Assembly: GCA_044892525.1 (NCBI GenBank)
Contig: CM097885.1
Span: 114,390,001 to 114,454,000 of the forward strand
DNA length: 64,000 nucleotides
Direction of reading: 5' to 3'
Source: Schmidtea polychroa
Lineage: Eukaryota
The notes under the pieces were generated by a model. It did no database searches and was not told the origin of the DNA. It was given only the letters and a program-made list of their open reading frames with translations. The translations under genes were made by a program, and so were the position numbers. This document shows, piece after piece, positions 1-5,236 of the stretch (its first letter is position 1; each line of letters starts with the position of its first letter).

Positions 1-1074
1 TGAAAAATAATAATAATAATAATTTTAATAATAACATCTTTGTTCTAGTGGAATCCTGCTTTTATGAATCGTGTAATGAATCTTTGTTTTAAAAATAAAT
101 GATGCATTGTCTTTGTTCTAAAAGGATGAGTCATATAGGGGGAGTGTGCAGAAAAGTACACCCTTTAAACATTGAGTCATCAATGAGTTTTTTTAATGTC
201 TGTCTTTGTTTAAATGTCTTTGTTTAAAATGATGAGTTATTGGCTTTGTTCCAAAAATGATGAGTCATCGCCTTTGTTTAAAAATGATGAATCACATGTA
301 CTTTAATGACCTTGATGAGTCATAGGATCAGTGATCGGATCAAAAATGTTACTAAAAATTGATCCAAGATGTTACTAAAAATAGATGTCTTTGTCCTTGT
401 GTTGGGCTAGAACTGATTTCTAGAACCCAAAGTTAGGAATGGGACGAAATGTGTCAGTACACAACACGCATACCCAGCATTAAGTTTACTTAAATAAAAA
501 TATATAAAACACCAAGTAAACAATAATAATAGAGATAATATACCCAAAAATAAAACATCTGAATTAAAAATAAAATAAAACACGAGCAAGAAGTATTACA
601 CGAAAACCTACTCAAATATAACCGAAAGACATAAAACAACAAAAAACAAATTCGAATAAAGGCGATTAGTAAAAATTAAAAAAGAAAATTAAAGAAAATC
701 TCCATAAAATCTTACGTAAAGAAAATTATATCGATATTTTGAATAAAAGTCCAGAACAATTCATAAAAATGGCGAAATCCATCATGACCGCCAAACGACC
801 CAATAAAATTAATAAAATAAATATTTTAGTTTAAAAAATAAAATGTTTAGAAAAGAAATCATAAAAAACAATTTAAAAATAAGAAATAGATTAAATTTAT
901 CATGGAATGTTCTGGAAATGCTGAAATCCACCATGGAGGCAAATTTAATAAAAAATAATTCAAAAACAAAATTCCAAAAAAAACAAAAATTCTTACTGAA
1001 AAATCCCCATCAAAATCGATAAAATTTAAAAATCGAATGTTCCAGAATTAAAATAATCCGAATTTATTTTACTG

Positions 1075-1384
1075 CATGGACCATCCCAACGAAATACATT
1101 TCCTGGAGTTGGAAGACTTCTGGGTAATTCCTTATTTTCTGTTTCGTTTTTTTTTTGGTTCAATGACTTGCATATTGCTTTGATGTAATAATGTTGGATG
1201 GCCAACTATATTCCTTGCATCTCTTTTTAAGTAGTCATTGTCAGATAATTCCGCCAGGAAGATTAGTTGGTGGAACTGACCTGGGGGCAATCAAACCTTC
1301 GTATCTCATTGAATTATTATAAACTCGATTGCTAAGGAAATCTCAAAATTTTCTCATTAGTGTTGTCAAACGATCTTTGTTCAT
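1075..1384 (-). pseudogene. NDUFA7: NADH:ubiquinone oxidoreductase subunit A7 (B14.5a)-like relic
   Basis: Manual translation gives MNKDRLTTLMRKF*DFLSNRVYNNSMRYEGLIAPRSVPPTNLPGG / LSDNDYLKRDARNIVGHP / LPTPGNVFRWD, matching the NDUFA7 pattern (PPPxLPxGP..LSxNYY..RDxR..PP...TPG..W). One stop, frameshifts, no introns. Confidence 0.7.
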
Positions 1385-2197
1385 TCGAGATGCTATAATA
1401 TATTATTGATCAATAGAATTGTTCCGAAAATTCGGCCAAATACTAATATTCCTGAAATATTATTAAAAAGTTTATGATATAAATATTTAATATTTTAGTT
1501 TATTTACATTATTATATCCAAACTGACTAAAATTATATTGATATATTTATTCGAAAATTATTATTTAACATTAATTATAATTACTGTAATAAAACAACGA
1601 AAATAAAAAAAAACGTTAAATAACTTTAACAAAACCAAAAGTAATAATGAAATCAAAATTCCATTACTTTATTTAAATTATTAGTTACCAACTTTTTCTA
1701 GTATTTTAACATAATGAATTCAAGTATATTAGGAAGTTAATTTGGTCATTTGAGGAATATTATAAATTAAAAATTTAAGTAAATTAGAATTATTTACTCT
1801 TCATAAGAACTTTTATGATTTTAATGAGTTTAAACTTCATATATTAATATTACCCATAATTTACAAGTGATATTTGGATTATGTTAAAATAGGTTTTAAG
1901 TTAACTTAATTAAATTGAAATTTTCTTTTGATCAAGTTATCATGGGGAATACATGTTATCTTTATCATTTCTATTGTTTCAGTTTATTAAGTTGTTTTTT
2001 TTTATTATTTTCTAATTAAATTCATTATTCTCAAAAATTTCTTAAGGTATGTTTAATAAACTATGGTTATGTTTCACTTAATTTATATTCAAACATTTTA
2101 GATGTGGTATTGTATGAACAGGTTTTAATAGACTAATGTATGATTCCGGATGACTTGTGATCGTTTGAGGATAGAAAGTTTGTATAGGCATAGTTGA

Positions 2198-2400
2198 GAG
2201 GGTGATTATAATGAGGGACCTGCGTAAATCGGACATATATCTTCTAGCGATAGTCCGTGAACCCATTAGAGTGCTCGACAATTACAGTGCAAGTAGTGCG
2301 CTCACTTTTTGCGAGCACTCACCCTCTTGATACAGTACCAACGTTGATTGCTCAACGGGTATCAAGCGGTAAACAACGTTGTATCTGGTCACAGCACTAA
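2198..2400 (+). ncRNA. Candidate structured RNA element, copy 1
   Basis: Stems GAGTGCTCG/CGAGCACTC (2269-77/2312-20), CTTGATAC/GTATCAAG (2326-33/2359-66), CGTTGA/TCAACG (2342-47/2352-57) and CGGAC/GTCCG. Homologous to 14280-14460 and 26684-26845. Confidence 0.6.
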
Positions 2401-5236
2401 AGAGCAAAATTTTTGATCATCAGTAACCCACCACTTGTTACAAAAAATAGACTATGAGTCTTCGATGAAGTAACGTGACCTTGTTGCCAAAATAGAATGA
2501 CCTTGACCTACTTACTAAAAATAGAATGACATTGGTGATTCATCGATGAGTCACGTGACCCTGACCTGGTTACCATGGTAACTATGGATGAGTCATAATG
2601 ATGAGTCATGGGGTTAGTGCAAAAATGACAAAAAACAATGAGTCGTGGAGCACACTTCACTCTACTTACGATGATATTCCAAGTTTACCTTTTCAGATAT
2701 TTTCAGATAATCTACTGAAGTTTACTCTCGGATAATCTATACCGACTTTCCAACTCTAAGCTGCATATGATTCTTGGGTAAGCCAATTGCGAATGTTTGA
2801 CGAATTCGCCGATTTCATTGAAAATTTAGATTGACAGCTTGATCGGCTACACCTATGTGAAGTCAAATCTGGAATAGCTTACCAAATCTACGAGAAGTGC
2901 CCATGAAGGTAGTACGGTATTATCCTCGACCAACAGAACGTGGGAAGTCAAGAGTTTCATCAGACCTGCGTGACGATAGTAGTTATTCGGTGGAAGAAAA
3001 ACAGGCGAAATTGCAACTCGAGCTAAACACATTGCTGATTTGAAGAACGATCAGCGTAAAACAATCCTATTCACACAATCAACTTTTCACACTAATTCTC
3101 TTCCATCTACACTCTGGACGTACCCATCTACGAGAACAATATGTTCACCATCAGTACAAGTACCAACGGCATCCAAACGTCCTCTCAAACGGTTTCGCCA
3201 TATATAATAATAAAAATCAACATAATACACTTTAAAGAAATTTATAACATTCAAGCATCTCTATTTCTATCATGACCTATCTGGTTTTTTTGGATTTATA
3301 ACTACTACCTCACTATGAAAATCATTCTGAGTGATTCCTACATTCCTATTCTGTTCGTGCCTCCGATCTCATGCTGACACTCGCTAGAAAAACTCTTCTG
3401 TGCTCACACCTTGCCTGGCTCACTGGATCACGATCTGAAGTTTTCCCTTTTCAATATTCCATTTACAGAAATTCCCCTTGCCTGTTCAACTTTACCTATC
3501 ACTCGACATTTCCTAGTTCTCTTCGGCTAGTTCTACTTGCTCACGGTCGTCCCCCGACACGGACATTACTTAGATAGATCTCCATGGTTTCGGTATGCAA
3601 ATTCAACTATCTGTCGTTTCTCAATGGTGATTTCCATCTCTTTACTTCTCATCTCCTGTAAGTGCTCCATTCGTTCCTGGGATGACATTCGTGCTGTCCG
3701 TCTCCTACATAAGTTTATCGCTCCCCTGATATAATCCCTTCTGCGAACCTGGTTGCCAAATCAATTCATTCCCCATTTTTCCATTCATGAATTCTACCAA
3801 GCTATATTCAATCCCAAATCCTCATCCTAATAATGTTGTGGAAAATATAAAAAATGTCTAATTTACCTGAATACAAATATATGCATATACTGAGAAAGGA
3901 GAACGTGTTGATTATCATAATATTTTAATTTATAATATTTTTACCATTTCATTAAACATACATAATGTAAAAAATAGGCATGATAAAATATAAAAAAATT
4001 ACATTTCCTAGTTTCGATCCACAGGATACAAAGTGTAGTTGGAACTAATACCCAATGATTTCGCAAGCTAAATTTCGAATCTAATGATTGACGCTGGACT
4101 AAATCTGAATTCGGATTTTAAAGATTGAGGAAATCAGTCATGTCGTTCTCAGTAGGGAGAAGTGTGCTACATGGCTCATCACATACCCCGATGAGTCATC
4201 GCTAAGCAAAGACATATGAATCATCGATGACATCCATAGCAACCATAGTAATTAGGGCAAGGGTTAGAGTTTAGCAACAAAGTCACGTGACGTCATCGAT
4301 GACTCATCAAGGCCATTCTATTTTAAGTAACTAGGTCAAGCTCATTCTATTTTTAGTAACAAGGTCGATGACCCATAATCTATTTTTAGTAACAAAGACA
4401 TCTAGTTTTGGATCTATTTTTAGTAACAATTTTGATCCAATCATTGATCTGATGACTCATCAAAGTCGTTAAAGTATATATGACTTATCATTTTAAACAA
4501 AAATTTAAACAAACATTTAAACAAAGACATTTCAATTTAAATAACTCATCGATGACTCATCGTTTAAAGAGGGTTACTTTTTTTTCACACTCCCCCTGTG
4601 TATTACTCATCCTTTATAAAACAAAGACAACGCATCATTTATTTTTAAAAACAAAGACTCATCACACGATTCATAAAAACAGGACTCCACTAGAACAAAG
4701 ATGTTATTATTATTATAATTATTATTATTACTATTATTATTTTCAATGTCATTATTATTTCAAAGTAATATTATTATTATTTTCAAAGTAATTACATAAA
4801 AAACATTACCATTTCTGATATAGGTGTTATAATTTTCTTCATAAAAAATTGGTTTCAAAACAAAATTTCATAAAATGGTTTCATAAATTGATTTCATAAT
4901 TCATAACAAAATTTCATAATTCATAAATTAGTTTCATAATTCCTAAAAACATAATAATTAAAATTTACTTGTTCATCCACGAGCATTTTGAAAAAATGAA
5001 TTACAAAGCATAGAGTATATGTAACGTCAATCCAATCAGAATACTGATAGGATAGGGAAATATACGCACACATACTCTATGCTTTGTTCTAAAATGATGA
5101 GTCATCGATTACTCACATAGTAACAAATAATGTCTTTGTTAAATTTACACGTGACATGAGTGGAACATGTCTTTATAAAAATAATATTTATGTGAGTATA
5201 AAGTAATGATTTCTTGGTAGCAGCATTTATTATTTG

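Follow-up and report, generated by a model that had tools for sequence, protein, structure and literature searches.

The window, a stretch of 64,000 nucleotides from Schmidtea polychroa, contains four related insertions that are read here as long terminal repeats (LTRs), or pieces of them, from giant retrotransposons. E1 (400..2433, plus strand) is a solo LTR of a sister family of the Burro elements discussed below; it has lost about 2.9 kb from its interior, and its target site duplication (TSD) is CTTG/CTTG. E2 (9421..14504, plus strand) is a full-length solo LTR of 5084 bp from a Burro-type element, with the TSD CACG/CACG, and E3 (23830..26933, plus strand) is probably a solo LTR of 3104 bp from an older and diverged lineage, whose TSD (TTAT/CTAT) matches at three of four positions. 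E4 (29697..30088, minus strand) is a 5' piece of an LTR from a related lineage, truncated by another, high-copy repeat at about 29156-29693; it was this truncating repeat that the search for E4 yielded at first. The initial annotation had given the same coordinates, termini and TSDs for E1, E2 and E3, and the same left end for E4 (30088, minus strand). It had also seen neither reverse transcriptase (RT) nor transposase, and E1-E3 indeed show no pol homology in tblastn searches.

The inverted match between the two ends is short, with 8 of the first 10 nt in E1 and E2 and 7 of 10 in E3, and over 40 nt it amounts to 17, 16 and 14 positions, respectively. A YY1-like 9-mer was confirmed at 766 (E1), 9730 (E2) and 24137 (E3), as was an AATAAA signal 319-378 nt upstream of the right end of each insertion; both motifs belong to blocks that are homologous among the insertions, so their recurrence does not count as independent evidence. 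In E2, AATAAA and the conserved 3' block (14185..14504, plus strand) likely correspond to R/U5 and are 79% identical to the 3' block of E1. The folding z score of the block at 14215-14504 is -2.29, and Rfam gave no matches in 300-30200.

The right end of E1 and E2 is present in 1488 exact copies in the genome (G000), against none for the reversed control, a number above chance. Among 19 complete copies from 22 loci, 17 have a perfect TSD of exactly 4 bp, a count that favours young copies because the loci were chosen as best matches; no primer binding site (PBS) or internal flank preceding an LTR was seen in these complete solo copies. The claim that excision restores the interrupted host repeats stands for E1: the sequences on its left and right match successive parts of the other arm of a host foldback (positions 31-383 and 366-479 of that arm). 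For E2 it stands at the junction only: the repeat at its left flank has a single CACG in all seven other copies, and the right flank agrees with these copies for just a few bases past CACG.

The origin of E2 is indicated by the elements in which the same sequence occurs twice. E2 and the 5' LTR of a 36.6-kb element (G000:C1:131909916-131946521) share 99.05% identity across 5071 alignment columns, and the 40 best matches to its 3' block include seven same-strand pairs 30.0-31.5 kb apart. In the three pairs that were fetched, the E2 sequence forms direct repeats at both element ends (3/3); these LTRs of 4.8-5.1 kb are 99.8-99.9% identical, they enclose internal regions of 25.3-26.7 kb and the elements are flanked by perfect 4-bp TSDs. 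One of the two origins initially considered, solo LTRs of 2-5 kb with genes inside the LTR, is thereby borne out, since the paired copies flank gag-pol and have a primer site; the initially proposed location of these genes in U3 is putative. The primer site consists of 23 nt complementary to the tRNA-Pro(TGG) of this genome, CCA included, and is located 7-8 nt past the LTR end. The tRNA-Pro came from a pattern search; a generic tRNA search gave Lys and Arg arrays (two loci checked).

Pfam analysis of one E2-family element revealed zf-CCHC, MATH, a Monjiviricetes fusion protein, RVP, RVT_1, RNase H, integrase H2C2 and rve, together with Ank, TRAF, BIR and RING domains. The order RVP, RVT_1, RT_RNaseH, Integrase_H2C2 and rve was found in two parent elements and corresponds to the PR-RT-RH-IN arrangement of Ty3/Gypsy-type elements. 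The fusion glycoprotein (PF24664, E 5e-71 and 3e-72) lies upstream of the protease and in the same frame, and a Bcl-2-like domain gives a weak match in the parent elements (E 0.04). In the whole genome, the internal leader follows 337 right ends, compared with 1488 right ends overall.

Ty3/Gypsy elements typically have a polypurine tract ahead of the 3' LTR. In all three elements checked, however, there are at most 9-10 purines per 15 nt before the 3' LTR, and the final 40 nt contain no run of purines; where the tract is typical, there are instead a conserved stem-loop and the sequence GGGCCCC.

The Burro/GYPSM1 elements are Gypsy-like LTR retrotransposons of giant size known from planarians (PMC6431247 section 7, which cites Grohme et al. 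2018 and Jurka 2007), with a total length above 30 kb and an internal region of up to about 25 kb (PMC6431247). The four parents found here, of 36.6, 35.1, 35.3 and 30.6 kb with internal regions of 22.2-26.7 kb, are alike in size. They also share with the published description a very long gag-pol frame, CCHC knuckles, MATH, a weak Bcl-2 match, ankyrin repeats, a fusion glycoprotein between gag and protease, PR-RT-RH-IN, accessory ORFs with BIR and RING/TRAF, and high copy number (PMC6431247). The parents therefore match the Burro type, a kind already described, and are placed there by published architecture rather than by sequence identity to Burro1-4/GYPSM1; in a pol search, the 120 best matches listed included no named Burro protein, and the best full-coverage identity there was 52%. 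With these parents the initial label of an unassigned cargo-carrying family is superseded, and the ORFs inside are genes inherited with the element. Beyond what section 7 of PMC6431247 presents, the parents have ORFs in the LTR, solo LTRs, pol-less derivatives of 21 kb, an offset tRNA-Pro primer site, a 4-bp TSD and no evident polypurine tract.

Related to this, E1 comes from the pol-less sister family. Its nucleotides 1-678 and 677-2034 match positions 1-685 and 3629-4996 of a 4996-bp solo LTR (L046) at 95-96%, with a deletion junction at 1076-1077 that shows a 2-nt microhomology. Thus E1 carries no cargo and is a deletion derivative; among 14 relatives aligned, the deletion is found in E1 alone. 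Two pairs of LTRs are known for this family, including a 20.9-kb element with the TSD TTTG, and its gag is 70% identical to that of the E2 family. Because both two-LTR copies examined keep gag and are devoid of PR, RT and IN, it is proposed that members of this family would move in trans.

E3 and a 30.6-kb two-LTR element (G000:C1:6887711-6918345) have the left end and an ORF in common, and their right ends are similar; that element encodes gag, fusion, PR, RT, RH and IN, and neither the YY1-like motif nor the late AATAAA is present in its LTR. The shared ORF survives in E3 as a remnant of the ORF b family (25886..26134, plus strand) with a stop and frameshifts, and is 48% identical (E 1e-17) to the ORF in the LTR of that element. 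No two-LTR or primer-site copy of the E3 lineage was detected in the 28 stretches screened (four of them E4-type) and one 60-kb stretch, which leaves homology as the sole basis for assigning E3 and E4. The 60-kb stretch contains two E3-like blocks 44 kb apart with no primer site, and the repeat continues beyond the LTR end, which looks like a duplication. Five E3 relatives comprise two with a perfect 4-bp TSD, one within a microsatellite, one mismatched and one unresolved.

Taken together, it is very probable that E1 and E2, and likely E3, are solo LTRs (E2 complete, E1 with its internal deletion) of 20-37-kb Burro-type Ty3/Gypsy elements, left most likely by LTR-LTR recombination, and that the interiors of E2 and E3 hold accessory genes of the element. 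In agreement with established retroelement biology, the parent RNA would be reverse-transcribed from tRNA-Pro, the cDNA would be inserted with a 4-bp stagger by the Gypsy-type integrase, and recombination between the LTRs would then delete the internal region, leaving one LTR between the original TSDs.

Two ORFs are present inside the E2 LTR. ORF a (12981..13346, plus strand; 121 aa) starts with an ATG 2 nt past a conserved AG acceptor-like site and its C-terminal end is an RGRP basic motif, which we take to be AT-hook-like. ORF b (13699..14130, plus strand; 143 codons) follows a conserved AG acceptor-like site at 13695-13696, has no ATG at its start and consists of a predicted helical domain and a Lys/Arg-rich tail. 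It is common to E2, E3 and the distant two-LTR family; the interior is therefore not variable as first described, the ORFs of E2 and E3 being homologous rather than different captures. Values of dN/dS are 0.20-0.38 in 10/10 pairs for ORF a and 0.12-0.17 in six pairs for ORF b when the distant copy L041 is excluded, although synonymous sites are saturated in many of the ORF-J pairs compared. Codon-position counts show an excess at third positions (e.g. 7/2/44 and 22/13/47). Judged by these substitution patterns, both ORFs are shown to be under purifying selection between LTR subfamilies.

Neither ORF has a Pfam family at E 0.05 or a PDB sequence match below E 0.1. The structure model of ORF b consists of two long helices (pLDDT 78), for which Foldseek gave no match at E 0.001. 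Matches of the LTR ORFs in the ESM Atlas, at about 0.9 and with low recognition, were treated as chance. On the basis of the basic motifs and predicted helices, the two ORFs most likely encode small nuclear nucleic-acid-binding regulators, and the conserved acceptor-like sites suggest that they would be expressed from spliced transcripts.

Genes located in the LTR or overlapping it are known from retroviruses (MMTV sag, HIV nef, the foamy-virus bel region), and Rev, Rec and Rem are basic RNA-binding regulators of complex retroviruses. The Burro-type LTR resembles these systems by an accessory ORF behind an acceptor or acceptor-like site and by a helical domain with an Arg/Lys-rich stretch; this likeness is one of layout and composition only, and the LTR ORFs gave no sequence or fold match. 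No description of ORFs within Burro LTRs was found in the literature consulted, and the figures and extended data of Grohme et al. 2018, as well as Repbase, may have them. We propose, as a tentative and rather doubtful extension, that Burro-type LTRs of 4-5 kb carry undescribed, conserved and spliced accessory genes (for a helical protein whose tail is rich in Arg/Lys and, in the E2 family, for an AT-hook-like one) which would act Rev/Tat-like on the element's own RNA or promoter, that hundreds of solo LTRs would be dispersed, self-contained units of regulator expression, and that the plus strand would be primed without a polypurine tract.

The interiors of the solo LTRs could also be fragments that were captured from host genes in the course of reverse transcription. 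A word-index protein search gave no matches for one ORF copy and one for the ORF profile, and the profile matches, with E 1e-13 to 1e-7, fall inside database proteins that also bear host domains (SNF, GDC-P, L21, CRAL-TRIO, S8 peptidase, ABC, actin, PTP). However, these domains vary from match to match and lie outside the matched stretch in every case, so that the proteins may rather be gene models mis-joined across a repeat. The ORFs, moreover, are common to distant LTR lineages and conserved within them, and they have no Pfam, PDB-sequence or fold match. Host capture is consequently improbable, and the ORFs are likely accessory genes of the element itself, coding for putative regulatory proteins.

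It is less probable still that solo LTRs are also mobile by themselves, through excision and reinsertion by the element integrase in the manner of MITEs or solo-LTR forms, so that some TSD-flanked solos were never part of a two-LTR insertion. By rough subtraction there are about 800 solo or truncated copies versus about 337 two-LTR starts, near-identical solos occupy different sites (E2 and L063, 99.4%) and internally deleted solos exist (E1, L038). A few solos per full element are nevertheless ordinary for LTR elements; E2 is equally near to the LTR of a two-LTR element (99.05%) and to the solo L063, and the deletion confined to E1 among its aligned relatives gives no visible sign of spread as a short form.

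Ginger transposons have terminal inverted repeats (TIRs) of 40-270 bp and CCGG/CCGT targets in Ginger1, and TIRs of 50-180 bp in Ginger2 (PMC2836005). The initial proposal of non-autonomous Ginger-like cut-and-paste vehicles capturing genes between TG...CA ends can practically be set aside: although TGT...CA-type ends, 4-bp TSDs and Gypsy-type integrase chemistry occur there too (PMC2836005) and the E1-E3 interiors have no RT, here only 7-8 of 10 terminal nt pair, CCGG/CCGT appears in 0/17 TSDs, no long TIRs or stand-alone transposase were seen, the integrase-bearing copies examined also have RT and RNase H, and, for E1 and E2, two-LTR elements contain the entire sequence as their LTR, which refutes the proposal.

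The insertions thus represent solo LTRs of a giant retrotransposon kind that is known, and the value that is left lies in the LTR anatomy. If confirmed, selected coding genes in a Ty3/Gypsy LTR would carry the layout of complex retroviruses over to an env-bearing retroelement of an invertebrate, and solo LTRs, usually seen as promoter relics, could retain whole genes. Burro RNA is among the most abundant transposon RNAs in planarian stem cells and is de-repressed upon PIWI loss, according to PMC6884822 and PMC8532177, so that the expression of the LTR ORFs is testable in existing data. Besides, these ORFs appear stitched into unrelated public gene models, and their recognition would clean such annotations.

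Three insertions and a partial fourth are present in the window with the positions, ends and duplications reported in the initial annotation: E1 (400-2433, target-site duplication (TSD) CTTG), E2 (9421-14504, TSD CACG), E3 (23830-26933, TTAT/CTAT) and the partial E4 (29697-30088, minus strand). They are real, and they are very probably explained as solo long terminal repeats (LTRs) of Burro-type elements, the giant Gypsy-like LTR retrotransposons of planarians. The imperfect inverted match between the ends exists, but it covers only 7-8 of the 10 terminal nucleotides. E1 and E2 are 79% identical in their 3' blocks and 67% in their 5' blocks, and their right end occurs exactly 1488 times in the 781-Mb genome searched (G000), versus 0 for the reversed control. 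E3 and E4 have a 5' block in common and gave no blastn match with E1 or E2.

The claim that excision restores the interrupted host repeats holds for E1: of the two long inverted arms of a host foldback element (1-4735), one contains E1 and the opposite one is collinear across the site. E2 lies in a repeat of high copy number that weakly matches GIY-YIG (E 0.003). A single CACG is found at the site in 7/7 other copies of this repeat, but restoration goes no further, as the likeness of these copies to the right flank of E2 stops a few bases past CACG. Beside E2 ends a frameshifted fragment (14505-15014, minus) that weakly matches a zinc ribbon (PF14369, E 4e-4) and presumably resembles RING ligases of the RNF115/126 type.

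The TSDs are reproduced in other copies. Of 22 loci chosen among the best matches, 19 included both termini and three had no left end within the stretch. Seventeen of the 19 are flanked by a perfect 4-bp TSD, whose sequence varies from copy to copy; of the other two, one lies in a TAA microsatellite and one is nested. None of these 19 complete copies has a primer site after it or an internal flank before it. All five clean two-LTR elements also carry a 4-bp TSD. The internal leader directly follows 337 right ends in the genome and, if 3' LTRs also number 337, roughly 800 of the 1488 copies would be solo or truncated, an estimate that is rough because the leader and right-end patterns differ.

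Paired copies flanking gag-pol together with a primer site, by which an LTR origin was to be recognised, were found for the E2 family. Among the best 40 matches to the E2 3' block, 14 form seven same-strand pairs spaced 30.0-31.5 kb. Three pairs were retrieved, and all of them are two-LTR elements of 35.1-36.6 kb with a perfect 4-bp TSD; their LTRs measure 4.8-5.1 kb (99.79-99.94% identical) and their internal regions 25.3-26.7 kb. Over its full length, E2 can be aligned with the 5' LTR of the element at G000:C1:131909916-131946521 (98.5% identity by blastn, 99.05% over ungapped columns). The primer site, a 23-nt complement of the 3' end of the tRNA-Pro(TGG) encoded in the same genome, including CCA, lies 8 nt past each 5' LTR. 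Retroviral primer sites are usually about 2 nt from the LTR end; the tRNA-Pro site is 7-8 nt from it in several families (L051:7003-7033; L155-L174). Tandem tRNA-Pro(TGG) genes form an array with 475-bp spacing at G000:C1:130901009-130952345 and beyond (1555 pattern matches genome-wide), and arrays of tRNA-Lys and tRNA-Arg genes occur elsewhere.

Pfam searches of the internal frames of G000:C1:131909916-131946521 identified zf-CCHC, MATH, a Monjiviricetes fusion glycoprotein (E 5e-71), protease, reverse transcriptase (RT), RNase H, integrase and ankyrin domains, and separate ORFs encode TRAF/MATH, BIR and RING domains. The long internal frame is broken in each of the three copies, and one two-LTR copy has a long microsatellite expansion within the polyprotein region (L052:5090-6189). 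Size and domain order are those given for Burro/GYPSM1 in section 7 of PMC6431247, which cites Grohme et al. 2018 and Jurka 2007; the same section terms the in-frame env between gag and pol a first case. To judge from the element, the host is likely a planarian. Unnamed database polyproteins (P0018-P0040) show 48-52% identity to the pol region; the fusion domain PF24664 is present in several of them and Ig domains in some, which suggests that other datasets contain further Burro-like lineages.

Retroelements are copied by tRNA-primed reverse transcription and inserted by an integrase with a short stagger, and LTR-LTR recombination leaves a solo LTR. E1, E2 and E3 would each have arisen through these three steps, the reverse transcription being primed by a tRNA. 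One feature does not fit the textbook retroelement: no polypurine tract (PPT) was found in the last 40 nt before the 3' LTR in 3/3 elements (L054, L035, L183). Its place is taken by a stem-loop and GGGCCCC, kept between distant families.

The first 678 nt and last 1358 nt of E1 match both ends of 5-kb solo LTRs with 95-96% identity; about 2.9 kb is missing, with a 2-nt microhomology at the joint. To judge from these alignments, E1 is an internally deleted LTR of a sister family. Two paired copies of this family were retrieved. The clean one, 20.9 kb long with TSD TTTG, has LTRs that are 99.8% identical and a tRNA-Pro-type site containing a mismatch; the second is in a nested arrangement with other repeats. 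Gag (Retrotrans_gag, zf-CCHC) is retained in both and, in the clean copy, is 70% identical to that of the E2 family; tblastn detected no protease, RT or integrase in either. On these two copies the family looks non-autonomous, and it would be mobilised in trans.

The relatives of E3 are all diverged (80% identity or less in the 5' block); 2/5 of those checked have a perfect 4-bp TSD. No primer site was found in 28 stretches screened, four of them E4-type, and therefore no parent of the E3 lineage was found. The genome has 612 matches to a pattern in which the tRNA-Pro site comes after a CCAACA end; of 20 such loci retrieved, 11 lack an E3 match and nine match the E3 interior weakly. One of the nine, G000:C1:6887711-6918345, is a 30.6-kb two-LTR element (TSD CTAC) with gag, fusion, protease, RT, RNase H, integrase and ankyrin domains. 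Its LTR ORF is 48% identical to the broken frame of E3 (E 1e-17) and about 31% to ORF b of E2 (E 1e-6). Because this element shares its first 10 nt and its LTR ORF with E3, the most likely reading of E3 is that of an old solo LTR from the group to which the element belongs. E4 comprises some 390 nt from a related 5' block and is cut off by another high-copy repeat (29156-29693), which has 1237 candidates at first look and 85-90% identity. Among the 612 matches, the tRNA-Pro site is shared by at least three more LTR families that differ in their 3' ends, and one copy examined (G000:C1:5722001-5772000) looks like a gag-only derivative with a spacing of roughly 14 kb.

The insertions had also been regarded as carriers of captured cargo. 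The interior of E2 contains two reading frames, ORF a of 121 aa at 12981-13346 and ORF b of 143 codons at 13699-14130. Neither is present in 11/11 LTRs of the E1 family, so E1 carries no cargo. In pairwise Nei-Gojobori comparisons between natural copies, dN/dS is 0.20-0.38 for ORF a in 10/10 pairs, with all bootstrap intervals below 1, and 0.12-0.17 for ORF b in six pairs, four more pairs with a distant copy being near or at saturation; the LTR ORF of a distant family gives 0.03-0.24 where computable, most pairs being saturated. Third codon positions have an excess of differences in 6/6 pairs counted. Because of this selection and the conservation across LTR families, the supposed cargo is an inherited element gene under selection. 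The interest of the finding lies in these LTR-borne ORFs and in the lack of a PPT. A Ginger-like vehicle, the other proposal, is rejected on the length of the terminal inverted repeats, the target sequence and the RT present in integrase-bearing copies, as set against the Ginger description (PMC2836005).

A pyrimidine-rich AG precedes both ORFs and is conserved in a subfamily whose proteins are 70-80% identical; at this site ORF b lacks an ATG. Four residues are invariant in 16 copies of the ORF b family; the family is predicted to form two long helices and gave no Pfam, PDB or fold match. Its profile, searched against 1.84 billion representatives, matched 18 proteins at E ≤0.001, most of them long, in which the ORF-b-like stretch is fused to host domains that differ from one protein to the next; our reading is that these are gene models mis-joined across a repeat. 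E2, the distant LTR family and 10/18 matched proteins have 8-12 Lys/Arg per 16 residues after the domain, a count in which the scoring window for P0126 was misplaced. The putative product may be translated from spliced RNA and bind nucleic acids, for which retroviral Rev/Tat-type regulators are the comparison. No description of ORFs in Burro LTRs was found in the literature searched; figures and supplements of Grohme et al. 2018 and Jurka 2007 may show them, the primer site and the TSD.

Elsewhere in the window, the minus strand at 15138-16070 and 30737-36387 holds the tail of a BEL/Pao-like integrase (DUF5641) and, separately, a decayed Gypsy-like element whose 140-nt direct repeats are spaced by 5.5 kb. 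An almost perfect tandem duplication of about 11.4 kb, with a spacing of 11408-11474, occupies 38964-49400 and 50438-60800; it could be real or an assembly duplication. Within it are exons of GNT-I, pieces of transposons and an ORF of 483 codons that has no Pfam match and resembles a B-family DNA polymerase.
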